Source of the DNA: a virus
Strand: one strand, 5' to 3'
DNA length: 38,977 bases
Virus record (IMG/VR): IMGVR_UViG_3300045988_170240
This document shows positions 1 to 38,977 of this stretch, piece after piece. Below the pieces are notes generated by a model. That model made no database searches. It was given only the letters and a program-made list of their open reading frames with translations, and was not told the origin of the DNA. The stretch's first letter is position 1. The number at the start of each line of letters is the position of its first letter. The translations under genes were made by a program, and so were the position numbers.

Positions 1-119
1 CTTTTTTTTTATTTAAGTATTTCAACCCTTTATCGGGCGCTCAGTTAATTCAGGTAGTTACGGAGAATACAATAATTTCAGGTATTTAAAAATGCTTAGT
101 TAAATCAGGTGCTTTGGAC
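1..119. repeat. Left direct terminal repeat (119 bp), identical to 38859-38977
   Basis: Sequence 1-119 (c + T9 + atttaagtatttcaaccctttatcgggcgctcag...gctttggac) recurs exactly at the right end of the window. Confidence 0.85.
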
Positions 120-264
120 GTTTTTCATGAATACGATGAACACGTTTATCAAAGTTAAGTATTTCAACTGTTTATGAGGCGCCCAGTTAATTCAGGTAGT
201 TACGGAGAATACAATAATTTCAGGTACTTGACTTTGTTTAATTAAATCAAGTGCTTTGGACGTT
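13..264. repeat. Two tandem imperfect ~110-bp direct repeats (13-122 and 155-264, period 142 bp, roughly 85% identical); a third partial copy lies outside this interval at 301-360
   Basis: ttaagtatttcaacNNtttatNgggcgcNcagttaattcaggtagttacggagaatacaataatttcaggta...gtgctttggacgtt read twice; aataatttcaggtac recurs again at 340-354. Confidence 0.7.
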
Positions 265-710
265 ATTTCCGATAAAAGTGTATATAAAAATTAAAGACAA
301 TCATTTCAACCATTTAATTTTTTCCCCTTGAGGTTAATAATTTCAGGTACTTATCTCAGAGTGAAAATCGAAGTAAATTTCCAATAGGGTATAAGTACTT
401 GAAATATATGAGGATTCGCGGAATATCGATTTTAGCGGCACTCTCCCCAAAAACCTTTATATATATACTCCTTTAGAACTAATTTTTACTAGGTTATTAA
501 TTTATTTTTATTACTTTATCACTTTATTACTTTATAATAATAAAATAATATAATAAATATAAGGGTTTACGTGGTGCCCAAATGAAAGTGCGGAGGCCTA
601 AGCGATTTTTCGCGACACTTTAGTATTTTTGCCCTCCGTTCTGCCAATATTTTGCCGAGAGTTTTTCTGAAAGAGCAGATCCGCGAGTCCCCGAATCCTG
701 AGTATAAAAG

Positions 711-738
711 AAGGCCCGCATCGTGAAATGCGGGCCTT
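711..738 (-). terminator. Rho-independent terminator downstream of the leftward HTH gene
   Basis: Perfect 11-bp stem aaggcccgcat / atgcgggcctt with a 6-nt loop; on the - strand it is followed by CTTTTATAC; 21 nt past the stop of the 760-1056 gene. Confidence 0.55.
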
Positions 739-759
739 GAAAGTAAGAATTTTTACTGA

Positions 760-1056
760 TTAAGAAGCAGCTTCCCAAATGAACTTCTTGCCAAGCGGGT
801 CAGTGGCAATCATGATGCCCGCCTTCTTGAGATAGGACAAATTGGAACTAATGACCGCGGGCGACGTGTTGCAGGTCTCAGCAAGTTCCTTGATGCTCAT
901 ATGAGTGCCATTGGCGAGGGCTGCCTGAATCTTGTTCTTAATAGAATCAGGATTGTTGAACTTCTGCTGATACGTCTGTACCGCGAGAACCAAGTCTTCA
1001 TGAGAGAGGGCATTGAGGGCTTCGAGCGACAGATTGTTGAGTTCGTTGATGGTCAT
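760..1056 (-). CDS. Winged-helix/HTH DNA-binding regulator (98 aa) transcribed toward the left genome end
   Basis: ORF with AGGAG 7 nt upstream of the ATG; segment MSIKELAETCNTSPAVISSNLSYLKKAGI resembles an HTH recognition region. Confidence 0.6.
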   Translation of the reverse strand: MTINELNNLSLEALNALSHEDLVLAVQTYQQKFNNPDSIKNKIQAALANGTHMSIKELAETCNTSPAVISSNLSYLKKAGIMIATDPLGKKFIWEAAS

Positions 1057-1114
1057 GGTAGATCTCCTAATGGTTAGAATTTATTTAGCGTCATCACGCT
1101 CATTTGTTGAATTC

Positions 1115-1142
1115 AGTATACGCCTATTCTAGAGGGTTGTAA
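1115..1142 (-). promoter_or_regulatory. Sigma70-like promoter for the HTH gene (-35 TTACAA, 16-bp spacer, -10 TATACT)
   Basis: Read on the - strand: TTACAAccctctagaataggcgTATACT; overlaps the inverted repeat agggttgtaaaccct (candidate operator). Confidence 0.4.
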
Positions 1143-1178
1143 ACCCTTTTCTGAATAAAATTTAAAAATATTTTCTGT

Positions 1179-1207
1179 CCATTTTGCTTTCTCTATACGG
1201 GTATAAT
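1179..1207 (+). promoter_or_regulatory. Possible rightward promoter with a perfect TATAAT (1202-1207) and weak -35; divergent from the HTH promoter
   Basis: ccatttTGCTTTCTCTATACGGGTATAATtg; would transcribe the non-coding leader 1210-1900. Confidence 0.25.
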
Positions 1208-1327
1208 TGAGGACTTGGGTTGTCCTGCAATTCATTCTATCATGTATTGCAGACTTTGTACACGCCAAAACCTGGGCGCCTAAGGACCTGGGCAACCCTC
1301 ATGGTCAGTGACAGCTAATGATAGCGA

Positions 1328-1389
1328 GTGACTCCTGAATGCTCAATCAGGGGTAGGTGACTGCAGGTGACTCCTGAATGCTCAATCAG
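1328..1389. repeat. Two perfect 23-bp direct repeats gtgactcctgaatgctcaatcag (1328-1350, 1367-1389), a partial third (gtgactgcag 1357-1366), flanked by gtcagtgaca repeats (1304-1313, 1409-1418)
   Basis: Read directly; iteron-like arrangement with 39-bp period in a region lacking any credible ORF. Confidence 0.85.
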
Positions 1390-1815
1390 TGGGTGTCTGT
1401 CATCAGCTGTCAGTGACACCCGGTTGAACGCACGATCAGCCGGTCCGTCTTGCCCGCGGCGGCCGATCTGGTGGTACGGTGAACGGGAGTGAACCATATC
1501 ATCATAGCTGAACAAAGTGAAGCGCTATTATCTGTGGAACAGAGTGACACATTGTCCCAATGGTTGAACCAACGGTGAAACACCTCACGAGAAGCAAGGG
1601 CGGAGTCCCGAAGCGTATCTGCTGATTCGAGCGAATAACATGAGCGAGCTTCCACTATTAAGAGTTGAGGCGGAGCCTCAAGCTCGTATATGTTCAGTTA
1701 CAGCGTAGCAGCGCTAGCTGTATGAGCGATTAGGCTTGTAAGTGAGGGTGGAACCCGAAACGAAGAGCCGTAGCGAATACCATACTAGCGAAGCGGGCCT
1801 AATAGTTGCGAATGA

Positions 1816-1871
1816 ATCAAATTATTTTATTTGCGTTCACCGGAAGGTGAATGCGAGTAAAATAATTTGAT
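1816..1871 (+). other. Long near-perfect hairpin: 14-bp AT-rich stem (atcaaattatttta / taaaataatttgat) enclosing a 9-bp stem capped by a GGAA (GNRA) tetraloop
   Basis: Read directly; not followed by a U tract; lies 50 bp upstream of the early promoter. Confidence 0.6.
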
Positions 1872-1921
1872 TGAGCCACCACGCTGTACGCTTGTGAATA
1901 AAAGAATTATCCATAATATTG

Positions 1922-1950
1922 TTGACAGCTATCAATGATTCTGATAAGGT
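1922..1950 (+). promoter_or_regulatory. Strong host-type early promoter: -35 TTGACA, 17-bp spacer, TGaTAAGGT extended -10-like
   Basis: TTGACAgctatcaatgattctgaTAAGGT followed by RBS AAGGGAGG and the ATG at 1974. Confidence 0.5.
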
Positions 1951-1973
1951 GTATCTAACGAAAGGGAGGAAAT

Positions 1974-2180
1974 ATGAATAATGAAATATTGGATAGTTTG
2001 AGAAGAATTAGTTGTGGTATGGAAATTGTTATGAGAGATGTAATAGAAGAAAAGTATAATATGGATAGAGATTATATTGAGATAGAAGATTGGGAATTGG
2101 AATTAGAGGAAATTATTGGTAAGGGTGTAGTAGAAGGTTGGAAGGAAATAAATAGAGTTATAGAAAAGATGGAGAAGTAA
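1974..2180 (+). CDS. Small hyper-acidic early protein (68 aa, 19 D/E against 10 K/R), C-free coding sequence; candidate DNA-mimic / anti-restriction (Ocr-like) protein
   Basis: RBS AAGGGAGG 9 nt upstream; protein contains no A, H, P, Q or T because the coding strand has zero cytosines. Confidence 0.6.
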   Translation: MNNEILDSLRRISCGMEIVMRDVIEEKYNMDRDYIEIEDWELELEEIIGKGVVEGWKEINRVIEKMEK

Positions 2181-2181
2181 A

Positions 2182-2418
2182 ATGAATGTTAATGAATTGA
2201 TGTATGATTTGGAAGAATGTAAGTTGGAAGTTGAGAGTGTATTGTGGGAGATAGTTTGTGATAATAGAGGTGTAGAGAGTGTGGAAGATTTGGATGATAG
2301 ATTGTTATTGGTAGAGTGTATGGATGATTTTTATGGAGGTGATAATTGGGAGTTGTTTAAGTGGTGGATGGAGTTAGAGGAAGTGTTTATGTGGTTGTAT
2401 GATTTAAGTAATGAGTAG
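2182..2418 (+). CDS. Second small hyper-acidic early protein (78 aa, 23 D/E against 4 K/R, 5 Trp), C-free coding sequence; candidate DNA mimic / anti-defence protein
   Basis: Start ATG lies 1 nt after the TAA of the upstream gene, with a GGAG RBS; same restricted 15-letter amino-acid alphabet. Confidence 0.6.
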   Translation: MNVNELMYDLEECKLEVESVLWEIVCDNRGVESVEDLDDRLLLVECMDDFYGGDNWELFKWWMELEEVFMWLYDLSNE

Positions 2419-2423
2419 GAATG

Positions 2424-2464
2424 TGATAGAGGAACTTATAATGGTTCCTCTATCATTTTCTTTC
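2424..2464 (+). terminator. Intrinsic terminator of the early transcript: 12-bp perfect stem, loop containing TATAAT, then TTTTCTTTC
   Basis: tgatagaggaac-ttataatg-gttcctctatca-ttttctttc, immediately after the stop at 2418. Confidence 0.6.
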
Positions 2465-2606
2465 AATCGGCTGGCAACGCCAGATCCGACGAGTAATACT
2501 ATTATTCTTAATGGGGTATTAGGGAACAACGTGACCGTCCCATTAAGAATAATAGTGTTATGAGGAGGATAGATTGAAAGAAAATGATAGAGGAACCATT
2601 ATAATG
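2424..2606. repeat. Nested inverted-repeat element: 33-bp perfect IR arms (2436-2468 / 2572-2604) around a 103-bp core that has its own 18-bp perfect IR (2498-2515 / 2539-2556) and a small hairpin ctggcaacgccag (2471-2483)
   Basis: Arms verified base by base; the right arm is followed by a second tgatagaggaaccattataatg copy. Confidence 0.8.
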
Positions 2607-2720
2607 CACATGATATGAGAAATACCTAAATACTTTGCTGCTTAGGTATGAATTATGTCATAAAGAAATGTTTTTCTAGAAAAATTGGGGGCCCCGGGGG
2701 CAAGGACGCGGAGAAAAAGT

Positions 2721-2995
2721 AGTTCTTAGGTCATCCCGCATTATATTTGTCTCTTTTTCCTATTTCTCTACAACATTTGTTGATAATTCCTTATACGTGC
2801 GCGTCATGCGAAGAATCCTCATAACACATGAGTTCTATGCACAGAACTCGAGTTCTATAGAAAAAGCATGAGGGGCCTTGGTATTTTATCATTTCCACAT
2901 TTTTCTCTATAGAACTCACCCCTCATGCCAATTTCACCTCTATAGAACTACTGAGTTCTAAAGCTCCGAGTTCCGTAACTCAGGGCTTTAGAACT
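2721..2995. promoter_or_regulatory. Cluster of at least 8 copies of the AGTTCT/AGAACT motif, including the perfect palindrome half-site GAGTTCTATAG, upstream of the late operon
   Basis: AGTTCT at 2721, 2831, 2851, 2954; AGAACT at 2843, 2911, 2944, 2990; also IR catgagggg / cccctcatg (2867-2875 / 2919-2927). Confidence 0.6.
2767..2783. promoter_or_regulatory. 17-bp motif CTCTACAACATTTGTTG, repeated identically at 32627-32643; contains the inverted repeat caaca-tt-tgttg
   Basis: Exact 17-mer found twice in the genome, both in intergenic leaders. Confidence 0.5.
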
Positions 2996-3013
2996 AATGA
3001 GTTTAGAGACGTG

Positions 3014-3042
3014 GCCAAAATTCTTGTGTACATTTCCCAAAA
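3014..3042 (+). promoter_or_regulatory. Candidate late-operon promoter (-35 TTGTGT, 17-bp spacer, -10 TGATAT; weak -10, possibly activator-dependent)
   Basis: Positioned between the motif cluster and the RBS AAGGAG (3064-3069) of the first late gene. Confidence 0.3.
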
Positions 3043-3075
3043 TACTTGATATGGTACTTGTGTAAGGAGAAAATC

Positions 3076-3543
3076 ATGGATATTTCGACCCGGTGTGACA
3101 ATATGCAGCAGCAAGTTAGGTTGCTGTATGAGATATTCGGCTTTGAGGCGGATGAAATCGCCCCATTTGTCGGTCTCGCGCCCACCATGGTCAAAATGAT
3201 GATAGCTGATGGGCAGTACATAAAGGCCCCGACTAAATTTTCCAGTTTTTCGAAGAACGCAGACGACGCAAGGGACCAACTGATTGAAGTGATAATGCGT
3301 AAACAGATGGCCTTTGCGCCTATTTACGCACAAACTGAACTCATTCTTCTGCAAAAAGTAGCTGAATTAGCATCAAATATGGATGCAGATGACCCCAATG
3401 CGGCTCGAAAGCTCGACCTTCTTGCAAAAACTACGGCTACCCTCAATCAGGCAACTGTTGCGGCCATTTTGTCACAAGTGTCACAGAACAAATCTAATGA
3501 TAGTGGGATGAAGATAGAAGTAGTCAATACATTTTCAAACTAG
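3076..3543 (+). CDS. Putative terminase small subunit / DNA-binding protein (156 aa from ATG 3076; the ORF-track start at 3046 is a TTG)
   Basis: Sits directly upstream of the large terminase; RBS AAGGAG 7 nt upstream; N-terminal helix-rich region. Confidence 0.45.
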   Translation: MDISTRCDNMQQQVRLLYEIFGFEADEIAPFVGLAPTMVKMMIADGQYIKAPTKFSSFSKNADDARDQLIEVIMRKQMAFAPIYAQTELILLQKVAELASNMDADDPNAARKLDLLAKTTATLNQATVAAILSQVSQNKSNDSGMKIEVVNTFSN

Positions 3544-3554
3544 GGACCTTCGTC

Positions 3555-4871
3555 ATGGCCATAGCCCCAAAAGTCATAACCATACCACGCAATTTCACAC
3601 CGCGCGATTACCAAATTCCTCTGTACAATTGCCTGGCAGAAGGATATAAGCGTGGGTTGGCTGTGTGGCATCGACGGGCTGGCAAAGATAAAGTGTTTGT
3701 TAACATCCTGGCCAGAGAGTCGATCAAACGCGTTGGAACCTATTTTTATATTCTTCCGTATTATAAACAGGCGCGCGCGATCATCTGGGAAGGGATGGAC
3801 AAAACAGGGTTTCGTCTGATAGAGCATATCCCTAAAGAGTTGTGGGTTCGCAAGGACAATCAGCAGATGACCTTAGAACTCGCCAATGGCTCATTTATTA
3901 GATTCCTTGGGTCAGACAATATCGATTCCATTGTGGGTACGAACCCCGTGGGCGTCATATTTTCAGAGTTTTCGTTGCATAAGCCTGAGGCTTGGCACTA
4001 CCTAAGGCCAATCCTGCTAGAAAACGATGGGTGGGCCTTGTTTAATGGGACGCCTCGGGGTCATAACCATCAGTGGGAAATGGACCTGTACGCACGTACC
4101 TCCGACGACTGGTTTTACTCCAAAGCGACCATAGATGACACCCATGTGATGACAGAGGAGCAGGTGCAAGAGGAAATTGATGCAGGTCTTCCTCCGGCCC
4201 TAGCAAAGCAAGAATTTTATTGCTCATATGAGGCTGCATTGGTTGGTGCATATTACGGTGAGCGCATGGAGGCCATCTCGTCACACATACTCCCTACCAT
4301 TTCATGGGAGCCCAATCTCTTGGTCAATACTGCATGGGACCTGGGCATTGATGACGAGTTAGTCATATGGCTGTATCAGAAGGTGCATAATGAAATCAGA
4401 ATCCTTGATTGTATCCATGATAATGGACATGCTCTGGATTACTATGTGCGTCTGCTCAATCAACGTCCATATGCCTATGGATACCATATCCTCCCTCATG
4501 ACGTTGAAGTCAGAGAGTTATCTTCTGGTCGCAGTCGCAAGCAGACACTGATGGACCTGGGACTCCAAGACATACGTGTCAATAAGCGCATACCTGTGGA
4601 AGATGGGATCAATATGGCCCGTAATATACTCCCCAGGTGTTGGTTTAGTGAAGATAAATGCTCAAAAGGCATTGAAGCCTTGAAGGGCTATCGTGCACAA
4701 TATGACTCGAAAACGAAGACATATGGGGCGCCAGTCCATGATTGGATGTCACATTATGCGGATGCGTTTAGAATGATGGCGCAGCACGAGCGTTACCAAG
4801 AGTTTGCAACACGCACTCTGCCACAACGCACACGAGATTATGACTATAATCCGTTGACATATGGAGAATAA
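3555..4871 (+). CDS. terL: Terminase large subunit (438 aa)
   Basis: Position upstream of the portal gene; P-loop-like VWHRRAGKDKV near the N-terminus; C-terminal RNaseH-like nuclease Asp motif AWDLGIDDELV. Confidence 0.7.
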   Translation: MAIAPKVITIPRNFTPRDYQIPLYNCLAEGYKRGLAVWHRRAGKDKVFVNILARESIKRVGTYFYILPYYKQARAIIWEGMDKTGFRLIEHIPKELWVRKDNQQMTLELANGSFIRFLGSDNIDSIVGTNPVGVIFSEFSLHKPEAWHYLRPILLENDGWALFNGTPRGHNHQWEMDLYARTSDDWFYSKATIDDTHVMTEEQVQEEIDAGLPPALAKQEFYCSYEAALVGAYYGERMEAISSHILPTISWEPNLLVNTAWDLGIDDELVIWLYQKVHNEIRILDCIHDNGHALDYYVRLLNQRPYAYGYHILPHDVEVRELSSGRSRKQTLMDLGLQDIRVNKRIPVEDGINMARNILPRCWFSEDKCSKGIEALKGYRAQYDSKTKTYGAPVHDWMSHYADAFRMMAQHERYQEFATRTLPQRTRDYDYNPLTYGE

Positions 4872-5121
4872 CATGGGCGGTACAGTCAAGAAAGTTTTTG
4901 GTGGCGGATCTTCCAAGCCTGATACGAGCGCGTATGAGGCCCAGCTTGAGGAGCAGCGCAAGGCGACGGAGGCTGCTGAGGCCAAGGCTGCAGCAGCTGA
5001 TGCACGTGCTAGAGACCAGCAGCAGCGGTTACAGCAGGGCAGAGCGACCACCATTTTCACCAGTGGTGAGGGCGACACAAACATCAAGACGAAGAAACCC
5101 ACTCTGGGTTCTGGGATGTAG
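4861..5121 (+). CDS. Small Ala/Gln-rich protein (86 aa) ending in ...TIFTSGEGDTNIKTKKPTLGSGM
   Basis: ORF between terL and portal; its C-terminal about 22 aa is paralogous to the C-terminus of the next gene. Confidence 0.5.
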   Translation: MENNMGGTVKKVFGGGSSKPDTSAYEAQLEEQRKATEAAEAKAAAADARARDQQQRLQQGRATTIFTSGEGDTNIKTKKPTLGSGM

Positions 5122-5123
5122 TT

Positions 5124-5525
5124 ATGGCATCGCCCGTTGATATTGCGTCTATCTTCAAACGCAAGGGACAGACTCCGACTCCTGAGACTCAGACACCGAG
5201 TCAGGGGTCGTCTATCATCAGATCATTCTTTGTTCGTGAGGGCGGGACTGAGGCTACTCCTGCGCCACAGCGACCCAATCCTGTGTTGAGCTATTTTGAT
5301 CCGGTGGCGTACTCTCAGCAGCGGGCGGCGTACAACAAGTCACAGGGCATTGAAGAAACTGCGCCTAAGGCAGAAGTCAAAGAACTGACTGAAGAAGAAA
5401 AGCGTAATGCTGAGCAACGCAATAAGAACAAGGCATTTGCCTCTGGACGTCCGGCGACTATTTTTAGTCAACCTGAGTCGTCCAATATCAAGATCAAGAA
5501 GCCTACGTTAGGCTCTGGGAGCTAA
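5124..5525 (+). CDS. Small Pro/Thr/Glu-rich protein (133 aa) ending in ...TIFSQPESSNIKIKKPTLGSGS
   Basis: ORF; shares the C-terminal motif TIF...NIK(T/I)KKPTLGSG with the upstream gene. Confidence 0.5.
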   Translation: MASPVDIASIFKRKGQTPTPETQTPSQGSSIIRSFFVREGGTEATPAPQRPNPVLSYFDPVAYSQQRAAYNKSQGIEETAPKAEVKELTEEEKRNAEQRNKNKAFASGRPATIFSQPESSNIKIKKPTLGSGS

Positions 5526-5528
5526 TTC

Positions 5529-7199
5529 ATGACAGTAGGTCGTTCCACAGAGGCCTCTCAGCGAGAGCGGGATGAAGTCAAGCGTATCATTAAGCGCTTA
5601 GACCAGCTCAAGTCTGATAGGGCGAATTTTGAAGCTCACTGGCAAAAAATTGCCAAAGTAGTGATGCCTTTTGATATGTCCTTTCTCTCGCAGTATCAGA
5701 CTGAGGGAGTGGACACTGACCCTCGTGTGTACGACTCGACTGGTATTCACTCCAATGAGCTGTTGGCATCAGGCTTTTATTCTTTGTTGACAAACCCTGC
5801 ATCGCCCTGGTTTGACCTGAGTGTAGCCAATCAGAAACTGGCAAATAACTCGGCAGTCAAAAGATGGTTGGCAGATGTAACGCGCATCATGGCCTATGAA
5901 ATTCAGCGTCCTCAGTCGGGCTTTACTACTTCTCTTCATGAAGGGTATCGCTCATATGGCGCGTATGGCAACATGTGCATGTTTGTCACAGAGAAAAAGG
6001 ACCTGACTGGGCTTCAAATCAATTCTCTGCCTCTCTCTGAATGCTATTTTGCAGAGAACGCTGAGGGGCAGATAGGATCGCTCTACCGAGTATACAGACG
6101 CACCGTCCTTCAATTGGTCGAGGCGTTCGATAAGGCTAACCTGCATCCGGAGATCGTTAAGGCGTATGATGATGGGGAACTGAGCACCAAGTTTGAGATC
6201 CTCCATGTGGTGGCTCCGAACATTGAAGCAGACCCCCTCAGCATCAAAGCAGCCAAGGCCATGCCTTACAAATCCACGTATGTGGACACGAAGCATGGAC
6301 TTGTCATTCAGGAATCGGGATACAATGAACGTCCTTTCATGGCAGCAAGATTCTATAAAGCATCACATGAGACGTATGGTCGTGGCCCAGGTTCCAATGC
6401 TCTTCCCGATCTCCGGATGCTGCAGCAGATAGTTTCGACTAATCTGCGTGCGGCACAGAAAATGATTGATCCGGCTCTTATGATTCCGGACCAGGGTTTT
6501 GTGTCACCCATCTCGACCAAGCCTGCGGCGATTAACTATTATCGTACCGGCTCCATGGATCCTAAGGGCGTAGTTTCTATGCAAACAGGTGGACGCCCTG
6601 ATCTTGGTCTTGATATCATTAAAGACCTTCAGATGCGCATTCGGGAAATCTTCTTTGTGGACCAGCTTCAGCTGAACACAGGACCCCAGATGACGGCTAC
6701 TGAGGTTATGCAGAGAACTGAAGAGAAGCTTCGTCTTATGGGCCCGGTTGTGGGCCGTGCTGAGAATGAGCTTCTCTCGCCTCTGATCATTCGGTGTTTT
6801 GGTATTCTTATGAGAGCAGGCAAATTTGATACTCCTCCTGAGGAGTTGATGCAGCCTGGTGTGAAACTGCAGATTGTGTATACATCGCCCATTGCAAAAG
6901 CTCAGCAACAGGTTGAGGCTAATAACCTTACCAGAGCTATGCAAGTTCTTACTCCGTTCCTGTCATTTGATCCTGCCGCAATGGATAAGTTCAATACTGA
7001 CAAGACTGTGGAAGGCGTGTGCGATATGTATTCAATCAATCCTGAATACTTGCGAGATGATTCTGAAACTGCAGAAGTCCGGCAAGCTAGAGCAGAAGCT
7101 CAGCAGCAGGCTCAAATGGCAGAGCAAATCAAGAACGCAGGTATCGGTATGAATAACATCGCCTCGGGTATGGATACCTTAGGCCAGATGGAGCAGTAA
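5529..7199 (+). CDS. Portal (head-tail connector) protein (556 aa)
   Basis: Size and position between terminase and scaffold/capsid; Gln-rich C-terminus. Confidence 0.6.
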   Translation: MTVGRSTEASQRERDEVKRIIKRLDQLKSDRANFEAHWQKIAKVVMPFDMSFLSQYQTEGVDTDPRVYDSTGIHSNELLASGFYSLLTNPASPWFDLSVANQKLANNSAVKRWLADVTRIMAYEIQRPQSGFTTSLHEGYRSYGAYGNMCMFVTEKKDLTGLQINSLPLSECYFAENAEGQIGSLYRVYRRTVLQLVEAFDKANLHPEIVKAYDDGELSTKFEILHVVAPNIEADPLSIKAAKAMPYKSTYVDTKHGLVIQESGYNERPFMAARFYKASHETYGRGPGSNALPDLRMLQQIVSTNLRAAQKMIDPALMIPDQGFVSPISTKPAAINYYRTGSMDPKGVVSMQTGGRPDLGLDIIKDLQMRIREIFFVDQLQLNTGPQMTATEVMQRTEEKLRLMGPVVGRAENELLSPLIIRCFGILMRAGKFDTPPEELMQPGVKLQIVYTSPIAKAQQQVEANNLTRAMQVLTPFLSFDPAAMDKFNTDKTVEGVCDMYSINPEYLRDDSETAEVRQARAEAQQQAQMAEQIKNAGIGMNNIASGMDTLGQMEQ

Positions 7200-7433: not shown

Positions 7434-8335
7434 TGGATAATCCCACTCCGATTTCTGGCGGCGAAATTGCCGCTGGTGGATCCACCACTACTTCTCCGGC
7501 CCCTTCCCAGCCGGCTTCCCCGCCGCCAGCCCCCGCTGATGCTCCTAGCACTCAGGCTGGCAATCCTCCGGCCTCAGGGAGTTGGTTTGACCAGCTCTCT
7601 GAGGAACTGAAGGGAAGCAAGAGTCTGGCGAAGTTTAAGGACGTCAACAATCTTGCTCAGGCCTATGTTCATGCGGAATCGCTTATTGGACGCGATAAAA
7701 TTCCGGTACCGAAGACCGATGAAGACTGGCAAGACGTCTATAACCGCCTTGGGCGCCCTGCTACGCCTGATGATTATTCTCTCAATGCTGATGCTCTTAA
7801 GCAAATGCAGCTTCCTGAGGATATAGTATCAGTCCTGGAAGAGGACCTTAAATGGTTCAAGCCCACGGCGCACAATCTCGGTCTTAATGACCGACAGGCG
7901 ACGGCACTTATGCAGGCCTTTGTGGCTAACGTGAGTGAAACTATGTCTTCGAGAACTATGGACCAAGATACCGAACTGAAGCAGTGCGAAAATATGCTTC
8001 GTAAGGAATATGGTCAAGCGTACGACTCGAAGATTACCATTGCACAGCGTGCTCTGTTTACCCTGGGTGGCGAAAAGCTGGTTGACGAAGTGAACAAGAC
8101 GAGTCTGGGTCGCAACCCTGCATTCGTCAATATGTTCGTTCGTATTGGTGAACAGATGCATGAAGAACTCGGTTTGGATCTCGGTGGGCAACCGGATACC
8201 CCTGCAGATCTTGATTCTCAGATTCAGGAACTGCAGCGTCATCCGGCCTTCCTCGATTCGACTCACCCCGAGCATAAGTCTGTTGTTGACAGGATCCGCG
8301 TTCTGTTTGAACGTCGGTATCCCAATGGGTCGTGA
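7433..8335 (+). CDS. Putative scaffolding protein (300 aa), Pro/Ala-rich N-terminus, acidic
   Basis: Position immediately upstream of the major capsid gene; low-complexity acidic composition. Confidence 0.5.
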   Translation: MDNPTPISGGEIAAGGSTTTSPAPSQPASPPPAPADAPSTQAGNPPASGSWFDQLSEELKGSKSLAKFKDVNNLAQAYVHAESLIGRDKIPVPKTDEDWQDVYNRLGRPATPDDYSLNADALKQMQLPEDIVSVLEEDLKWFKPTAHNLGLNDRQATALMQAFVANVSETMSSRTMDQDTELKQCENMLRKEYGQAYDSKITIAQRALFTLGGEKLVDEVNKTSLGRNPAFVNMFVRIGEQMHEELGLDLGGQPDTPADLDSQIQELQRHPAFLDSTHPEHKSVVDRIRVLFERRYPNGS

Positions 8336-8397
8336 GTCGCCCATTGAATGAGGGCCCGAAAGGATAACCCCTCACTCAAACTTTATGGAGAAAACCA

Positions 8398-9261
8398 ATG
8401 AGTTTTCAGATTACTGAAGCCTTTGTGCAGCAGTACAACAGCACTGTGTCGCTGGTTTCCCAGCAGAAACAGTCGCGTCTGGAACCCGCTGTGCGCGTGG
8501 AAACCATCCGTGGCACGCGTGAAGCTTTCGATTCCATCGGTACTGTTGAAGCCCAGCCTCGTGGCGGTCGTCACGCTGACACCCCTCAGATGGACACTCC
8601 GCATATGCGCCGGTGGGTTACGTCTGCCCCGTACAACTGGGCGGACCTCGTCGACAAGCCCGACCGTCTGCGTATGCTGTATGATCCCACGTCACCCTAT
8701 GTGCAGAACGCCGTCATGGCCTTCAACCGCGCGAAAGACAAAATCATCATCAATGCCGCCTTTGCCCCTGTCTGGACGGGCGAACATGGCGATGTCCAGA
8801 AAACGTTCCCGACCAGCAACATCATCCCGCATAACAACACCGGTCTGACCATCGAAAAGCTTATTCAGGCCCGCGGCATGCTGTGGCGGAATGAAATCGA
8901 TGAAAGTGAACCCCTGTTCGCCGCCGTCACCAGCTTCCAGCTGGAAGACATGCTGAACAACACCAAGGTTCAGTCGGCTGACTACAACACCATCAAGGCC
9001 CTTGTACGCGGTGAAATCAATTCTTTTATGGGATTCACGTTCATCCGTACCGAGCAGCTTGAAAAGGACGGCGCGGCGCGTAAGTGCATCGTGTGGTCCA
9101 AGCCTGGTCTGCTCCTTGCCAAGGCGGAAGACATCACCACCAAGATCTCTGAACGTGGTGACAAGAACTACTCCACGCAGGTCTACGCTGAAATGGACCT
9201 CGGCGCGGTGCGTATGGAAGACGAAAAGGTCCTGCAGTTGCAGTGCAAGGAAGGTGCGTAA
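8398..9261 (+). CDS. Major capsid protein (287 aa)
   Basis: Position after the scaffold; strong RBS GGAGAAAACCAATG; overlaps the next gene start as TAATG. Confidence 0.6.
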   Translation: MSFQITEAFVQQYNSTVSLVSQQKQSRLEPAVRVETIRGTREAFDSIGTVEAQPRGGRHADTPQMDTPHMRRWVTSAPYNWADLVDKPDRLRMLYDPTSPYVQNAVMAFNRAKDKIIINAAFAPVWTGEHGDVQKTFPTSNIIPHNNTGLTIEKLIQARGMLWRNEIDESEPLFAAVTSFQLEDMLNNTKVQSADYNTIKALVRGEINSFMGFTFIRTEQLEKDGAARKCIVWSKPGLLLAKAEDITTKISERGDKNYSTQVYAEMDLGAVRMEDEKVLQLQCKEGA

Positions 9262-9692
9262 TGCAGTACTCCAACGTTGCTGGAAAGCAGAAGTCCAATG
9301 ACGTATACCGGTATCCGGCGGAACTGACCTCCGGCAAGGTACGTCGCCTGAAATTCGAAACTGTGACCGACGCGGCTGACACCGATATTACCATCGGGTT
9401 TTTGCCGTCCGGCACGACCAGTATTCTCGGCATTTCTCGTATGTCGGCGTCTGTCGCCACCACGGCGTCCATTGTCATTCCCGCCCATAAGTCCATGGGT
9501 GGAGAAGACGTAGCTGAGAAGACCATTCGTGCCGCAGCCACGGCTAACACTGCGGGCGGTGTGCCCATGACGGATACGCTTACCGGCGTGGATATCGATT
9601 CTCAGACTCAGGTCCCGGTTATTCTGAAGTTCTCGACCTCCGCTGCGAAGGGCACCAAGCTCGACGGCGAACTGTACTTCACCTACGAATAA
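9261..9692 (+). CDS. Putative minor capsid / decoration protein (143 aa, beta-rich)
   Basis: RBS AAGGAAGG; start overlaps the capsid stop; Thr/Ser/Ala-rich. Confidence 0.45.
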   Translation: MQYSNVAGKQKSNDVYRYPAELTSGKVRRLKFETVTDAADTDITIGFLPSGTTSILGISRMSASVATTASIVIPAHKSMGGEDVAEKTIRAAATANTAGGVPMTDTLTGVDIDSQTQVPVILKFSTSAAKGTKLDGELYFTYE

Positions 9693-9703
9693 GGAGCAAA
9701 GCC

Positions 9704-10261
9704 ATGGCGTCCTCTATCGAAATTTGTAACGATGCATTGACTATGTTGAGTCAGGAACCTGTTATGGCTCTTGATGATACAACTAAGGCTTCTCGCCTGT
9801 GCAAGCAGCGTTATGAACCGGTACGGGACGCCTTGCTTCGCTCTTATCCGTGGTCCTTTGCCATGAAGCGGGAGATTCTTGCACGAGATCTCGAATCTCC
9901 CGCTTTTGGCTATGCCAACGCGTATTCTCTTCCTGTGGACTGCGTACGTGTAGTCAGCATCAATGATAGGACGCAAGAATGGCAGGTAGAAGGTCGTAAG
10001 GTCTTGACTAACGCTGACAGGGCGAATCTTCGATACATACGCAAGGTTGAAGATCCTAACGAAATGGATGCGATGTTCAGAGAGTGTTTGACACTCAAGT
10101 TGGCCGCTGATATGTGCATTTCGTTGACCAGCAATATTGATCTCAAGTCGATGTACGAACAACTTCTTGAGCGCAAGATCAATCTGGCCTATAATGCTTC
10201 TGCCATTGAGAGCACTCCTCCTGAGGTCATCGAAGGTAACTGGATTCTGTCGAGGTATTAA
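9704..10261 (+). CDS. Tail tubular protein A-like (185 aa)
   Basis: Position and size correspond to T7 gp11 in a T7-like structural order. Confidence 0.4.
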   Translation: MASSIEICNDALTMLSQEPVMALDDTTKASRLCKQRYEPVRDALLRSYPWSFAMKREILARDLESPAFGYANAYSLPVDCVRVVSINDRTQEWQVEGRKVLTNADRANLRYIRKVEDPNEMDAMFRECLTLKLAADMCISLTSNIDLKSMYEQLLERKINLAYNASAIESTPPEVIEGNWILSRY

Positions 10262-10263
10262 AC

Positions 10264-12066
10264 ATGCAGGACGCAATTCCAATTCAAGTATCATTCGCTT
10301 CCGGCGAACTTAGCCCACGGATGCATAATCGCATTGACGTGGATGCTTATTTTGCCGGTGCTGCTGAGATGCGTAACCTGATTGCACTCCCGCATGGACC
10401 AATGACTCGTAGGATGGGTTCACGATTCGTCATCAATTGTAAGAGTGAGAAAGTTAAACTCATTCCATTTAAATTTAGTACCAATCAATCGTTCATTCTT
10501 GAATTCGGTAAGACTGCGAATACTGGTTATGGTGGATATATGCGTGTCCATTATAACGGTGGTACAGTTGTAAATGACAATGGATCTATTTACGAACTGC
10601 CAACCTATTTTATTGATGATGCATGGTATGACCAGGTAACCTGGGCACAGTCCGGCGACGTATTGTGGTTGTGTTATTACAACTATTCACCCCAGCGCCT
10701 CATTCGTAAGGCAAATAATAACTGGGAATTGGATACTCCTATTGCTCATACGTCAGACAATGACCCAGTTCCGCCACAGTGGCAGAATTTTAACTGGCCA
10801 AGAGTTGTTGCGTATCATGAACAGCGTTTGGTCATGGGAAGTACTCCTGCACAACCATTGACATTGTGGTTTTCTGAGATCGGGGATACTACCCGATTCT
10901 ATCGTAATCGGGCTTCCTCTGACCCGGTTCTTGATACTGACCCGATGAACTATACCATGGCCACTGATATGGCAGATGGTATTAAATGGTTGCACTCTAC
11001 TGACGTACTTTTGTGCGGAACTGGTAGTGCAGAATACCGTATTGCGCCATCATCCTTGGGTGAAGCTCTTACACCGAGTAATATCAAGATTACAAAGCAG
11101 ACCAATTATGGTTCTATGGCTGCACAAGCTGTCCAATTGGGCTCATCTGTATTGTTCATTCAAAACAGTCGAGATCGTGTGCGTTCTCTTGATTACTCGG
11201 TTCTTGATAACCAGTTTGCAGCCACAGATTTGACTATCTTTGCAGACCACATTCTTAAAGGCAAAGTCAAAGATGTGGCATATATGAGCGCGCCAGACAC
11301 GTATTTGTGGTGTATTACTGATACTAATCAGTTGATTGGCATGACATATGAAAAGCAACAGAAAGTACTTGCTTGGCATGCCCATTCATTCGAAGCTCAG
11401 ACCCAATCTGGATATGAGAATGTCGAACTGAAGAGTATTAGTTGTATCCCTGGTCCTAATGGCGACCAACTATGGCTTGTTATTAAAAGAGGAAATCGTA
11501 CATCTACGATTGAGTATATTGACAAGATTGTTAATGAGTCACCAAATTTGAGTGTTGAGTCTTTTGCTGATGGTCAGGCAGTATATCAAGGTACTGCTAC
11601 TTCAACCATTACTGGTCTCAATCATTTAGAAGGACTTAAAGTTGCTCCTCTTATTAATGGATGGGTCCATCCTGAAGTGTATGTACAAAATGGCGCAATT
11701 ACGCTTAATCAAGCAGTAACTAACTGTGTCATTGGTGTTCCATATACTTCACGGTTTAAGTCTATGGTTATTCAGGCATCTGACCAGGTATCTACAGGAG
11801 CATCGAGAAAGATTGTTAGTGCTACATTCTCTTTGCTGAATTCTCTGGGATTGAGATTCGGCATTGAGGGCCAAAGCATGCAAGAGAAGTTCTTTGGCCC
11901 GACCAAAATTATGAATAAGGCACAGCAGTTGTTTACAGGAGATTTTACTGAGTCTGTAGCGTCTTCTAACAATGAAACGCAACAGCTCGTAATTGAACAC
12001 AAGACACCCTATCCTCTCATGGTTAGGGCCATTGTGTATCATATCAATCCGAGGCGGGTTAACTAA
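10264..12066 (+). CDS. Tail tubular protein B-like / tail protein (600 aa)
   Basis: Large ORF in the gp12 position. Confidence 0.4.
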   Translation: MQDAIPIQVSFASGELSPRMHNRIDVDAYFAGAAEMRNLIALPHGPMTRRMGSRFVINCKSEKVKLIPFKFSTNQSFILEFGKTANTGYGGYMRVHYNGGTVVNDNGSIYELPTYFIDDAWYDQVTWAQSGDVLWLCYYNYSPQRLIRKANNNWELDTPIAHTSDNDPVPPQWQNFNWPRVVAYHEQRLVMGSTPAQPLTLWFSEIGDTTRFYRNRASSDPVLDTDPMNYTMATDMADGIKWLHSTDVLLCGTGSAEYRIAPSSLGEALTPSNIKITKQTNYGSMAAQAVQLGSSVLFIQNSRDRVRSLDYSVLDNQFAATDLTIFADHILKGKVKDVAYMSAPDTYLWCITDTNQLIGMTYEKQQKVLAWHAHSFEAQTQSGYENVELKSISCIPGPNGDQLWLVIKRGNRTSTIEYIDKIVNESPNLSVESFADGQAVYQGTATSTITGLNHLEGLKVAPLINGWVHPEVYVQNGAITLNQAVTNCVIGVPYTSRFKSMVIQASDQVSTGASRKIVSATFSLLNSLGLRFGIEGQSMQEKFFGPTKIMNKAQQLFTGDFTESVASSNNETQQLVIEHKTPYPLMVRAIVYHINPRRVN

Positions 12067-12506
12067 TGAAGCCGATTTTCCGGGAAGTAAATCTGGCACA
12101 TCACATTGGTAGAGCGATTCATTTGATTGATGCGCACTGCCAAGAGGTAGTTGGACAGGGTAAGAAGTATAATCCAGACATTGATTATCTCTGTATGGGG
12201 TCAAATACTGGGTTACTGCATACGTTTGATATTGAGGACAATGACAAGGTAGTAGGATATGCGGTTTTTATGATCGCAAAAGATTTTATTACCAGTGAAC
12301 GGTCGGCGTCTAATGTGGCCATTTATGTGTCACCTGAATATAGAGGGCGTACAGCAGTTAGGTTTATGCAGTACACTGAAATGATGCTTTTGTCCAAGGG
12401 TATTAAGCAAATAAATTTTCATGTACCTCCGAGTTCTATGGCAGAAAAGTGCCTCGCTCATTTAGGGTACAATCTTCGTGAGAAGGTTTACTACAAAGAG
12501 TTCTAA
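12066..12506 (+). CDS. GNAT-family N-acetyltransferase (146 aa) in the internal-virion-protein (gp13-like) position
   Basis: GNAT motif-A-like YRGRTAVRF preceded by beta-strand VVGYAVFMIAKD and followed by an NFHV segment typical of the GNAT fold. Confidence 0.5.
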   Translation: MKPIFREVNLAHHIGRAIHLIDAHCQEVVGQGKKYNPDIDYLCMGSNTGLLHTFDIEDNDKVVGYAVFMIAKDFITSERSASNVAIYVSPEYRGRTAVRFMQYTEMMLLSKGIKQINFHVPPSSMAEKCLAHLGYNLREKVYYKEF

Positions 12507-12525
12507 AGCTCATTGGGAGTAGAAT

Positions 12526-13002
12526 ATGGCAATGTCCACCCTTGCTATGGCTGCAGTCGTAGGTTCCACACTTGTTGGAACTATCGGTTCTTTGCAGCAA
12601 GCTGAAGCACAATCTGCTGCGTATAAAGCCCAACAGGCGCAATCTCAGTATCAAGCAGAACTTTACGAGCTGAATTCGCGTAAAGAAGCGGCTAATATGG
12701 GTGTAGAAGCCACCAGACTGCAAGCTAAACAGATTGCTGCGGCATCTGCTAGCGGCTATGAACTTGACAGCGGTTCTTTTATGGACCTGGTTAATGAATC
12801 CGCGGAGAATGCCAAACTTGATCGTGAGGATGTTCTTCGTACAGGGCGTTTACAAGCTGAAGCCAAACGAGTTGAAGCAGATTCATATGGTAAAGCAGCA
12901 AAGGATTCTAAAACCGGTGGATGGGTTAACGCTGCAGCATCTTTGTTCAAGGGTACAACTAGTGGGTACCTGGTTGGTAATAAAGCAGGATGGTGGGACT
13001 AA
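12526..13002 (+). CDS. Internal virion protein (158 aa), hydrophobic N-terminus, Ala/Gln-rich
   Basis: ORF in the gp14-like position. Confidence 0.4.
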   Translation: MAMSTLAMAAVVGSTLVGTIGSLQQAEAQSAAYKAQQAQSQYQAELYELNSRKEAANMGVEATRLQAKQIAAASASGYELDSGSFMDLVNESAENAKLDREDVLRTGRLQAEAKRVEADSYGKAAKDSKTGGWVNAAASLFKGTTSGYLVGNKAGWWD

Positions 13003-17500: not shown

Positions 17501-18620
17501 CTTTAATGCCCAGGTTCAAGGTCTCGATAAAACCTATCGTATGGCTAAGGGTGACCCTATCAGGTTTATGTCAGGTGTGGGGGCAGGAATAGTTCTGCCA
17601 TCTTTGCTTCTGTCATTAGTTAATAATGACATTATGTACAATAGCCCTGACTCTGATACTGCTAAGGCATTGAGGAACGTACCGGACTGGCAGCGTGCTA
17701 CATGTTGGATTGTTCCTACTCCTTGGGCGGTATTGCGTATTCCTAAGCCCCAGGAATTGGCAGTAATTGCAGCAGCCCCAGTCGAAATGTTTGTTGACTG
17801 GGTATATGAAAACAAAGATAGAAGTCTCCTGCAGAAAATGTGGGATGACGGATTTTTTGACGCCGTTAGTGATCAGATTATACCTAGTGTTATGCCTTCA
17901 GCTATTGCACCTGTATATGAATCTGCGGCTAACTATAGTTTCTTTACCGGAAACCCCATTATTCCATCATTCATGGAAGATATGTTTCCGCAGACGCAAT
18001 ATAAGGCCAACACAACTGAGATTGCTAAGAGCCTGTCGCGTGTCCTCAATTATCTGGACCCTGTAGCAGAAACAGCAATTGGTAGACGTGCATCTTCTCC
18101 ACTTATTATGGAACATCTTGTGAGAGGATGGACGGGTCAGGTAGGACAATATGTCCTTTCTGCCTTGGATACTGCGGCGCAAGAAGCGGGAATTATAGAC
18201 AAAGTAGAACGCGCGGCGCCGACTCTTGCTGACTTACCAGTAGTTAAGTCGTTTGTTTTCAGATATCCTAGCGTGAGTGCTAAAGCAATTGAAGACTTTC
18301 AGACAAAGGCAGGTCGGCTTGAGAATCGTCTGAAGTCAGTAAATATGCTTATGAAAGAGGGTACTGGCGTTGCAGCAGCTATGGCTGAAGAGCTTATGAA
18401 TAGCGGACCTATGGGCCAGTTTACTGGTGTACGGTCTTCTCTAAATAACATGAGCAAAGCTGTCAGAATGATTCAGTTCAATGAAGATATGGATGCGGAT
18501 GAAAAGCGACAGCTAGTCGATCAGATTTATAGTGAAATGATCGATGTCGCAGAACAAGGTCTTCTTGTCATCGACGAGGTTAATAAGGCCTATAAGGAGG
18601 TGAAGAATGCTGATAAGTAA
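14532..18620 (+). CDS. Large internal virion / ejectosome protein (1362 aa)
   Basis: ORF of gp16-like size immediately before the tail-fibre genes. Confidence 0.5.
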   Translation: MAYTQQTNEALAAGFSLSEIREQAKREADEAIQAGFTADEVYEGIKTEYGFSLKDDPADLEAAQDFIEVATVDPVLAEKADMEVAQGNPRPVVDWKEAVLAGYQNSITGLAVRGELPNLVVPETGSVAQKVFAMAGQAIGDIPALVVGGAAGATTGPAAPITSPAAAMGLTEGLRTYMTDMYREGKATTWTEVVDRTLNTLSSAGKGAVIGAATGGAGKYTGKFFSEATPAMKTTAQLFSEITTMTTAGSLMEGKMPTAEDFMIASMGLGGMKAAGFYSNRLMGVFEVTGKTPEAVRINSIIEPTIREDVASINLEVPRAYRSSYRRVFTEGVNLNPESAPAGVWYSTSKNAAEAAAKKTEGASVQEYQVHRSVPMFHYTDARGARLFKEFLKTPEGKASMEKMDPEFFQEYPNFIEKYKSVSQERLIPTSRKMFENPTPEFIEWLSSDKLSPEAIETLAGATKGKKVRELTRNIEGIQMGSRMFIFDQKKVSAAKAAPKGEMPIDAAQAELRQNISLGEEKGTRTWSEIKDSTYQSLVDKFAPLNTGASPGKMTESRAMASALMGSPKMAMHWIEHSPFKFGSRENFGIPLDKIIKEAGDPRGLSEYLIAKRTMELSEQGVDTRINPEVAYSVGKNPENVAKYDTAAQKIYDYNNNLLDYMKDAGLISERQLRDIKAKNKKYVPLNEVVTEFEPSFGEDFAAPKAVIIDPLESVVRNTFSVIRMAESNAVKKQIAKDFGQAVEVSQRESPLSHDVSRKTQITVRENGRKRVYAVPEEIAKTARQLDMDSALIYNGIMKGLTEVASWTRAGSITTPEFVVRNLFRDQFTAAISNPGYIYGLSALKGFTSVISKRTGGRLFPKMEQYYWDWAKNGGGNASLVALDRKFTQEMITEMAKVPARNLLKDPVKNYKEVISMINPLNLRKAPGIVKRALQSATEMTDEATRIGGFIEDVNRGISPFEAAVKSRDITQDSMRIGAVTKGFNAITAFFNAQVQGLDKTYRMAKGDPIRFMSGVGAGIVLPSLLLSLVNNDIMYNSPDSDTAKALRNVPDWQRATCWIVPTPWAVLRIPKPQELAVIAAAPVEMFVDWVYENKDRSLLQKMWDDGFFDAVSDQIIPSVMPSAIAPVYESAANYSFFTGNPIIPSFMEDMFPQTQYKANTTEIAKSLSRVLNYLDPVAETAIGRRASSPLIMEHLVRGWTGQVGQYVLSALDTAAQEAGIIDKVERAAPTLADLPVVKSFVFRYPSVSAKAIEDFQTKAGRLENRLKSVNMLMKEGTGVAAAMAEELMNSGPMGQFTGVRSSLNNMSKAVRMIQFNEDMDADEKRQLVDQIYSEMIDVAEQGLLVIDEVNKAYKEVKNADK

Positions 18621-38858: not shown

Positions 38859-38977
38859 CTTTTTTTTTATTTAAGTATTTCAACCCTTTATCGGGCGCTC
38901 AGTTAATTCAGGTAGTTACGGAGAATACAATAATTTCAGGTATTTAAAAATGCTTAGTTAAATCAGGTGCTTTGGAC
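38859..38977. repeat. Right direct terminal repeat, identical to 1-119
   Basis: Exact match to the window start. Confidence 0.85.

Follow-up and report, generated by a model that had tools for sequence, protein, structure and literature searches.

The window analysed here, the whole 38,977-nt stretch of viral DNA held as IMG/VR record IMGVR_UViG_3300045988_170240, carries on its + strand a 475-nt block (1960-2434) that contains no cytosine (C) and that appears, from its sequence, to be a complete, naturally evolved cytosine-free transcription unit encoding two small proteins, ORF1 and ORF2 (ORF, open reading frame). Comparison with relatives shows that selection removes C itself while keeping the proteins, and complex C-free operons recur in unrelated phages, next to terminase genes. 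A first-pass annotation of this DNA, made from the letters alone, knew of no described phage gene block written without one nucleotide, and our search of the full-text literature likewise found no description of a natural one.

Base composition and anatomy of the transcription unit

A base count of the + strand gives 171 A, 154 G, 150 T and 0 C for the block, in agreement with the annotation. Elsewhere in the window no C-free run exceeds 54 nt, the GC skew is +0.80 in the 500-nt bin holding the block and at most 0.23 in all others, and C makes up 20-29% of the coding strand in 18 of 18 large genes. The uniqueness of the block, for which a sliding-window count had been proposed, is borne out by the 200-nt windows outside it, all of which hold at least 20 of each base. 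Under the composition of the window a C-free run of this length has a probability of ~1e-51, so that chance, as had been claimed, cannot explain it. Given the two proteins and the codon usage of the phage, the probability of using only C-free synonymous codons is 1e-13 for ORF1 and 1e-17.5 for ORF2, and the probability that their 146 residues include no Ala, His, Pro, Gln or Thr, the five residues that the annotation had correctly listed as absent from both, is 1e-19.8. The constraint acts at the nucleotide level, as had been proposed, since the 5' untranslated region (UTR), the intercistronic junction and the 3' UTR are also C-free and a C-containing allele (described below) differs by NNC/NNT and CGC/AGA recoding. 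The consequences drawn in the annotation follow logically: the block can hold no G/C palindromes, its non-template strand has no C, and neither has its mRNA.

The elements of a sigma-70 unit can all be read in the sequence (Table 1), namely -35 and -10 boxes at 17-nt spacing, Shine-Dalgarno (SD) sequences with start codons, and a GC hairpin followed by a U tract. The strong promoter that the annotation placed before the block is present, as are its two tandem ORFs. A simple scanner misses this promoter, whose -10 has only 3/6 matches; its geometry, TTGAC(A/T)-17-TA(A/T/G)(G/A)GT, is conserved in the related loci L001, L002 and L005 (L numbers denote the loci compared). Transcription is predicted to start at about A1957, and relative to this position the last C's ahead of the block lie at -3 (1955) and +3 (1959); in L002 and L005 the C-free stretch begins at about -22. 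The transcript meets its first C at 2435, on the final base of the ascending arm of the terminator, in which L005 shows a compensatory change (A>G / T>C). The C-free zone is the whole predicted transcription unit, as far as the GC terminator hairpin allows. On the minus strand the block has no G, and therefore no ATG, GTG or TTG start is possible there. We considered a CsrA sponge and rejected it, the 24 GGA motifs not differing significantly from the 17.9 +/- 3.2 expected.

Table 1. Coordinates of the features of the window and of the C-free operons of other phage lineages.
Sequence	Feature	Position	Strand	Details
Window	Hairpin, 27 bp, GGAA loop	1815-1872	+	-37 kcal/mol, z -11; terminator-like in scan
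Window	Sigma-70 promoter	1922-1950	+	-35 TTGACA 1922-1927, 17-nt spacer, extended -10 TGaTAAGGT 1942-1950
Window	Cytosine-free block	1960-2434	+	predicted transcript +4 to ascending terminator arm
Window	ORF1, 68 aa	1974-2180	+	SD GGGAGG at 1964-1969
Window	ORF2, 78 aa	2182-2418	+	coupled to ORF1: GGAG 2171-2174, junction TAAaATG
Window	Intrinsic terminator	2423-2466	+	14-bp stem, 6-nt loop, U-rich tail; -25.7 kcal/mol, z -7.3
Window	Perfect 33-bp inverted repeat	2436-2468 / 2572-2604	.	encloses 22-bp inverted repeat 2494-2515 / 2539-2560
Window	Start of packaging module	3046-4871	+	165-aa ORF, then large terminase 3555-4871 (phrog_2)
L052	C-free operon	7946-8969 (= L051 1070-2093)		1,024 nt C-free; ORFs of 78, 107, 67 aa
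L073	C-free operon	5586-6693 (= L068 702-1809)		1,108 nt C-free; five ORFs
L066	C-free operon	10208-10487		280 nt C-free; one 65-aa ORF
L067	C-free operon	4796-5103		308 nt C-free; small ORFs; 60%-GC phage, 112 kb
L069	C-free operon	611-1054	-	444 nt C-free; small ORFs
L070	C-free operon	10970-12914	-	at least 1,945 nt C-free; 145-aa ORF and others; AT-rich contig, 105 kb
L071	C-free operon	9457-9933	-	477 nt C-free; ORFs of 46, 68 aa

The encoded proteins

Both ORFs are real protein-coding genes. Their frames are open beyond chance (stop codons make up 11.5% of the triplets of C-free sequence, and the probabilities of open frames of 68 and 78 codons are 2.5e-4 and 7.5e-5), they are under purifying selection (see below), and AlphaFold gives confident three-helix models of their products, with pLDDT values of 94.3 for ORF1 and 92.4 for ORF2. 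The acidity described in the annotation is confirmed (19/68 and 23/78 acidic residues, net charge -9 and -19), and since D and E account for 28-29% of the residues, against ~13% expected from the C-free codon set, it is a property of the ORF1 and ORF2 proteins themselves. It is not part of the C-free phenomenon, since the C-free proteins of another lineage, L052, are net basic and comprise a TrmB-like winged helix (E=0.0015) and a CxxC...CxxC protein of zinc-ribbon type. The description of the proteins as Trp-rich holds for ORF2 (5 W) but not for ORF1, and ~3.7% Trp is expected anyway from C-free codons.

The annotation had likened the proteins to DNA mimics of the Ocr/ArdA type. We found nothing to uphold this reading: there was no match in Pfam (E<=1), PHROG, PADLOC or PDB profile searches (none below E=0.12), and neither Ocr nor ArdA was among the Foldseek PDB matches of the two models. 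For ORF1, ORF2, the middle ORF of fuller relatives and the 70-aa ORF of C-containing alleles, PHROGs, Pfam, PADLOC, PDB sequence, Foldseek, BFVD and HMMER searches gave no lead to a function; the best Foldseek matches of the two models reach only E values of 2.8 and 4.5 in PDB and 0.86 in BFVD, none of them significant, and matches to Acb2, epsilon-antitoxin and PadR, with E above 2, were set aside as noise. When 1.8 billion representative proteins were searched exhaustively with HMMER, the ORF1 family was found only in this phage group. ORF1 and ORF2 were also rejected as paralogues of one another (hhalign probability 0.2%).

Selection against cytosine among relatives

ENA, JGI, NCBI and Logan assemblies yielded 139 homologues of ORF1 and 52 of ORF2, and nearly all of the latter are without A, H, P, Q and T. 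Single protein variants occur on 124-210 contigs, many of them 37-41 kb long and one labelled 'human gut metagenome'; the phage is common and abundant in human-gut metagenomes. The block is found with natural variation in independent JGI, ENA and Logan assemblies, which removes the concern, raised in the annotation, that it could be a cloning or synthetic artefact. The annotation had also suggested looking for the same exclusion in related phages, and the block is indeed conserved there: at 35 relative loci it measures 385-746 nt and holds 0-3 C's beyond the C at +3. Its fullest version, in L014, is C-free over 743 nt and has three ORFs of 68, 88 and 78 aa. In the window the middle gene has been lost by deletion between two TAAAATGA junctions; numerous in-frame deletions and ORF1/ORF2 chimeras are present among the homologues. 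The cassette is accessory and plastic.

The C-free state is kept in L005, whose large terminase is 92% identical to that of the window, and in L002, whose primase is 61% identical. The ORF1 of these two loci is only 22-37% identical to that of the window and still C-free, with a nucleotide sequence that has largely turned over. In informative comparisons, the ratio of nonsynonymous to synonymous change (dN/dS) is 0.07-0.09 for ORF1 and 0.07-0.23 for ORF2, and a synonymous divergence (pS) of 0.34-0.53 between lineages has created practically no C (0-3). The same signal is seen among close haplotypes, where 5/59 minor alleles in the block are changes to C compared with 43/179 in the flanks; T>C changes number 4 in the block (A>G 12, G>A 28) and 32 in the flanks (A>G 22). 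NNT codons almost never become NNC in any context, and a few C's are tolerated as polymorphisms or as variants of a lineage (two in L002, one in L005, three beyond +3 in L010, two in L036), which fits a small and roughly context-independent cost for each C. Some of the tolerated C's create ACA (L002, L036). Avoidance of ACA, and hence of MazF, was rejected as the sole cause of the exclusion, because synonymous NNC codons that create no ACA are absent too and because tolerated C's do create it.

Cytosine-containing alleles

Four loci (L017, L026, L041 and L039) carry a minority allele and provide a natural control, in that they have the promoter and the downstream element of the window together with a cassette of 11% C (47/430 and 69/595 nt). 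The large terminase of L017 is 99% identical to that of the window, and C-free and C-containing alleles are both present in metagenome 3300045988. The ORF1 of the 11%-C alleles has 74-89% protein identity to ORF1 of the window, and the codon differences are AAC/AAT, AGC/AGT, TGC/TGT, GAC/GAT, GGC/GGT and CGC/AGA. ORF2 is missing from these alleles, which carry in its stead a 70-aa ORF whose composition is normal. Mosaics are common and contain one to three Ala or Thr residues. In L043 (10001-11192), a phage contig of 71.7 kb, a homologue of this 70-aa ORF (79% identity) stands first in an operon behind a TTGACT-17-TATATT promoter and is followed by an ArdC-N / MPTase-PolyVal gene.

The comparison of alleles bears on the possibility that the block has no adaptive meaning and is the product of strand-specific C>T hypermutation, or of an assembly, sequencing or synthetic artefact. 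Deaminase hypermutation does remove one base in a strand-coordinated way, but T is not inflated (31.6% in the block and 26.8% in the genome) and the window has A at 8 of the 18 C positions of the alternative allele, with CGC>AGA double changes that exchange C and A at both positions and keep Arg, a pattern that indicates recoding under protein constraint and not a footprint of C>T deamination. The C-free state is also maintained through saturating synonymous turnover, is found on hundreds of contigs from independent projects and assemblers, and recurs in unrelated phages; a non-adaptive origin is hardly conceivable.

The same alleles can be set against the explanation that the operon is a structure-free, Rho-proof message, which, having no G-C pairs and no YC, would be translated promptly and efficiently and would stay hidden from sensors or nucleases of structured or double-stranded RNA. 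The mRNA of the block has a folding energy of -39 kcal/mol, compared with -145 +/- 19 for 51 equally long coding windows, and that of the L052 operon -52 compared with -262 kcal/mol. C is the only partner of the G-C pair that the genetic code allows to be dropped, and the primary site of Rho binds YC-rich, G-poor RNA. The first few C's would, however, add almost no structure or rut site, and the explanation thus predicts a C-poor rather than a C-free message. It leaves the near-total exclusion and the deficit of T>C polymorphism unaccounted for, and the 11%-C alleles persist although they fold at only -0.19 kcal/mol per nt. We consider it improbable that the exclusion of C arose for this reason.

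Cytosine-free operons in other phages

Five pattern scans of IMG/VR, each anchored at a promoter or an SD plus ATG followed by 170 non-C bases, revealed C-free operons in seven other lineages (Table 1). Anchored scans cover a narrow slice of start contexts, and the cases found are a sample only; 14 scan loci that consist of low-complexity purine or AT repeats were discarded. The large terminases of L052, L073, L066 and L069 have 22-31% pairwise identity, except for L066 and L069 (64%), and in BLASTP the window large terminase was unmatched by those of L052, L073, L066, L069 and L071. Comparison of the C-free proteins across lineages gave no convincing similarity. L052 also carries a C-containing paralogue of its C-free winged-helix gene (9320-9565; 39% identity, E 4e-15), 1 kb downstream of it and behind a TTGACA promoter. 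The block directly adjoins terS/terL in the window, L052, L073, L066, L069, L071 and L067, and is mostly transcribed away from these genes; in L070, no terminase match was found among the neighbours within 13 kb. Adjacency to terminase genes in six of the seven other lineages lends support to the idea, put forward in the annotation, that these genes are the first to be expressed.

Adjacency to terS/terL in six very divergent lineages also speaks for the main rival explanation, according to which the block is a restriction-proof leading end of the DNA, its C-free strand excluding palindromic G/C sites and most Type I/III sites until its products protect the genome. As a matter of general phage biology, cos and pac sites and genome ends usually lie near terS/terL, and we infer the same here. 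The first-step-transfer (FST) DNA of T5 reportedly has no EcoRI sites, and ris mutants in which such sites are created are said to become restrictable. Two independent full-length contigs, ERZ839823 NODE_788 (40,414 nt) and OHGW01000102.1 (39,873 nt), stop at exactly window position 2639, which lies 205 nt past the block in the loop of an imperfect 20-nt hairpin (2610-2661) and could mark either a true end of the genome or a break common to both assemblies. A leading end is further favoured by those parts of the C-free runs of L052 and L070 that hold no sizeable ORFs, by the ArdC-like gene that neighbours a cassette-gene homologue, and by the co-existence of C-containing alleles, as expected for a host-dependent benefit.

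The surroundings of the block agree less well with a leading end. DNA that is site-free in the manner of T5 FST DNA is not what we observe, since G/C palindromes lie within 5-260 nt on both sides of the block (GTAC at 1886, GATC at 2476, and GGGCCC/CCCGGG/GGCC/CCGG at 2686-2700), and many more occur in 1060-1900. We estimate that ~60% of single C's placed in an otherwise C-free strand create no palindrome of 4-6 bp, and almost none of these has appeared at a pS of 0.34-0.53. The boundaries of the block in the window group track the promoter and the terminator and no DNA landmark, and the circular assembly, with its 119-nt overlap, does not place the physical ends. These points speak against the avoidance of palindromic restriction sites as the only cause, and a restriction-proof end is on balance a doubtful explanation for the block.

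A proposed three-letter bootstrap message

The reading that we favour, tentatively but as one that may well be correct, is that the cost of C is paid in the synthesis or survival of the transcript and that the operon serves as a bootstrap message for accessory early proteins. We infer immediate-early timing, action at the RNA level and an anti-defence role for it. A strong host-type promoter would drive an unstructured mRNA of A, G and U only for the two small, acidic and helical proteins (fuller relatives have three), and the unit would end at an intrinsic terminator, the first place that physically needs C. Each C would be a point at which the first phage message could be stopped, cut or altered, and the candidate agents are scarce cytidine triphosphate (CTP), a C-analogue chain terminator such as the viperin product 3'-deoxy-3',4'-didehydro-CTP (ddhCTP), and a C-directed RNase or deaminase of the host or the phage. 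Without C, the message would never be held up, and it would supply accessory proteins for takeover or anti-defence; the C-containing genes would be expressed afterwards.

A three-letter mRNA must drop C, because C is the only base that can be lost with AUG, the three stop codons and the Shine-Dalgarno sequence kept. Removal of G takes away AUG, GUG and UUG, and removal of A or of U takes away AUG and the stop codons; an mRNA without C retains AUG, UAA, UAG, UGA, GGAGG and 15 amino acids. Pressure for DNA whose strands never combine G with C would likewise have to take C from the coding strand. Since the loss of C follows from the code, the agent need not be chemically cytosine-specific. A context-independent cost per C fits the complete lack of synonymous NNC codons, and it fits the tolerance of C at +3, since abortive products or the clipping of 3 nt from the 5' end would be cheap there. 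In a wider form of the bootstrap reading, which we regard as possible and hold with less assurance, many unrelated lineages keep a 'three-letter' immediate-early operon at the terminase-side genome end as a bootstrap message while cytidine or CTP is attacked, either by a host barrier or by the phage's own shut-off weapon, with proteins that lift or exploit that state; the C-containing alleles and paralogues would then mark hosts or phases without the barrier.

Several points weigh against the bootstrap reading. The C at +3 in the main lineage argues against strictly CTP-free initiation, with the start site itself resting on prediction. We know of no C-specific RNase, RNA deaminase or CTP-depleting defence in the presumed host. 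The products of viperin reportedly act mainly on phage-type RNA polymerases, and no RNA polymerase gene was found among the window ORFs scanned. Sequence and structure searches detected no relative of known function for ORF1 or ORF2. The C-free run in L052 and L070 spans ~200 nt or more without ORFs of at least 40 aa, which would require long UTRs under an RNA-level model and which a DNA-level constraint fits too, and the adjacency to terminase genes fits the DNA-entry explanation equally well.

A context-independent cost per C, equal unit boundaries and an absolute strand asymmetry would also be expected if it were the transcribed DNA that is protected, either because a C-free non-template strand in the transcription bubble is spared by single-strand cytosine deaminases or because a G-free template spares the polymerase modified or ADP-ribosylated guanines. 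No other transcription unit of the phage has such a skew, however, guanine-modification genes were not found among the scanned ORFs, and the C at -3 in the window lineage lies inside the open-complex bubble of the predicted start. To our knowledge, no bacterial defence of this kind acts on transcription bubbles, and we give this explanation little credence.

The phage genome and flanking elements

The final 119 nt of the window (38859-38977) equal its first 119 nt (1-119), which leaves ~38,858 unique bases; 119 is a MEGAHIT k value, and the window is a circularised assembly. It represents a podovirus-like phage of ~39 kb and 46% GC. The structural module is on the + strand (large terminase, portal, major capsid protein, T7-like tail-fibre N-terminus and lysozyme), and the replication genes are on the - strand (primase-polymerase/helicase, DUF2800 nuclease, PolA, Enc34 single-stranded DNA-binding protein, ligase, SNF2, ThyX, dCMP deaminase and two nucleoside triphosphate (NTP) pyrophosphohydrolases). 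The portal shares only 37% identity with those of pelagiphages and T7-like phages, and megablast with window 1-6000 found no deposited near relatives. By position only, the 165-aa ORF before the large terminase is a putative small terminase. A nucleotide-pool cluster at 30550-32617 (- strand) includes MazG/dUTPase_2-like, dCMP deaminase, ThyX and dATP/dGTP diphosphohydrolase N-domain genes, and its dCMP deaminase also matches MafB19 and AID/APOBEC-like deaminase models; the cluster fits a 46%-GC phage that re-balances nucleotides in a GC-richer host. The 1,362-aa product of 14532-18620, which has an LPD38 'large polyvalent protein' domain, is probably an ejected virion protein with enzymatic modules.

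Upstream of the operon, window 1200-1880 is conserved and ORF-less, with 39-nt spaced repeats at 1319-1353 and 1358-1392 (extra copies in L002) and several hairpins that show compensatory changes. It is probably a structured non-coding RNA of ~600 nt, with iterons as the alternative; Rfam gave no family at the gathering score and only noise at E<=1. The 27-bp hairpin that closes this region, 50 nt 5' of the operon promoter, has six compensatory pairs in L002 and G.U pairs on the + strand only, and would be a terminator-like insulator. Downstream of the block, the nested inverted repeat 2436-2604 is identical in the window, L014 and L017 and may act in packaging, at a genome end or as RNA. Each 33-bp arm carries an outward-facing promoter-like TTGAAA-17-CATTAT, the left copy running antisense into the C-free operon. 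Every k=31 Logan contig breaks at the 33-bp inverted repeat; we rejected these breaks as genome termini, since a perfect 33-bp repeat explains them at k=31. Further on, just 5' of the packaging/structural operon, window 2823-3003 holds direct and inverted copies of CTCTATAGAACT / GAGTTCTATAGA, which are likely operator sites for a regulator.

Window 13-400 has three direct repeats at 142-nt spacing (two 113-nt copies and a partial third), followed by a 69-nt G-free AT-rich stretch (494-562), and 13-562 as a whole looks like an origin or terminal-repeat region.

It has also to be considered whether the block is itself a DNA element in which the small genes are merely embedded, its purine-rich C-free strand forming a replication-priming R-loop or serving packaging or ejection. 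Purines make up 68% of the + strand in the block of the window and 75% in that of L052, the block lies beside the terminase genes, the iteron-like 142-nt repeats and the AT-rich stretch, and the phage encodes PolA and a primase-polymerase. R-loop and packaging signals, however, need no zero-C over 0.3-2 kb, and the ORFs fill the block under strong purifying selection. Sequence turnover inside it is high, and viable relatives have lost it or carry an 11%-C allele in its stead, all of which makes a DNA element very improbable.

Host

A search of 185,579 species genomes with the window terminase gave nothing, and the phage has no E. coli match. A T4-type lysozyme and a tail-fibre chaperone are among its proteins. 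The sole host lead comes from the tail fibre (19545-20651), whose residues 112-300 are 78% identical to Bilophila wadsworthia ATCC 49260 (L042 3001-3567, NZ_JNJP01000012.1). The phage may infect Bilophila, and a Desulfovibrionaceae host is plausible from this match; L043, the contig that shares a cassette gene, has 56% GC. In a GC-rich host, a C-free message of 32% GC, with codons of the AGA, AUA and UUA type, should be expensive to translate, which underlines the strength of the selection.

Comparison with known systems

The operon belongs to none of the groups represented by T7 Ocr, T5 site-free DNA, MazF-resistant mRNA and synthetic C-less cassettes, although it has something in common with each. 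Like T7 gene 0.3 (Ocr), it has a strong sigma-70 promoter, small acidic first protein(s) and a probable genome-end neighbourhood, and the shared logic is that of a protector expressed before the rest of the genome is exposed; there is, however, no similarity in sequence or fold, and no base is depleted in the early region of T7. T5 FST DNA would be similar in that the composition of the first-entering DNA is shaped by host nucleases. In T5, and in site avoidance generally, particular words are removed, whereas the block has lost a whole nucleotide with sites abundant alongside; T5 enters in two steps, which for the present phage would be hypothetical. In ACA-less, MazF-resistant mRNA, synonymous recoding likewise gives immunity to an endoribonuclease with the protein kept, but in both the natural bias and the engineered single-protein-production system one trinucleotide is gone, and in the operon every C. 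Synthetic C-less and G-less cassettes are templates that RNA polymerase transcribes with three NTPs up to the first missing base, and the operon is in principle another; but they are artificial and non-coding, whereas the operon arose in nature, codes for proteins, and is both conserved and polymorphic in wild phages.

Two further systems invite comparison. In CpG suppression (ZAP evasion) and APOBEC3 motif depletion, viral composition is purged, as it may be here, by an innate factor that reads bases or dinucleotides, but these cases are dinucleotide-level, genome-wide and confined to eukaryotic viruses, and here a mononucleotide is wholly lost from one operon. The anti-defence islands in the leading regions of conjugative plasmids (ArdA, ArdC) consist of small accessory genes that enter and are expressed first, as is proposed for the operon; in contrast to the operon, no compositional exclusion is described for them, and they are expressed from single-stranded DNA promoters.

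Implications

Natural selection can run a working sub-code of 15 amino acids and three nucleotides for whole folded proteins, and this sub-code is relevant to recoding and to the design of robust, structure-free mRNAs. If each C in the first message is a liability, some barrier directed at C or CTP, or some mechanism of shut-off by the phage, has probably gone unrecognised. The abundance of the phage in the human gut and the possible Bilophila host make the hypothesis testable. If it is true, C-free operons would be a simple signature for immediate-early or anti-defence genes, and perhaps for genome ends, in uncultured phages.

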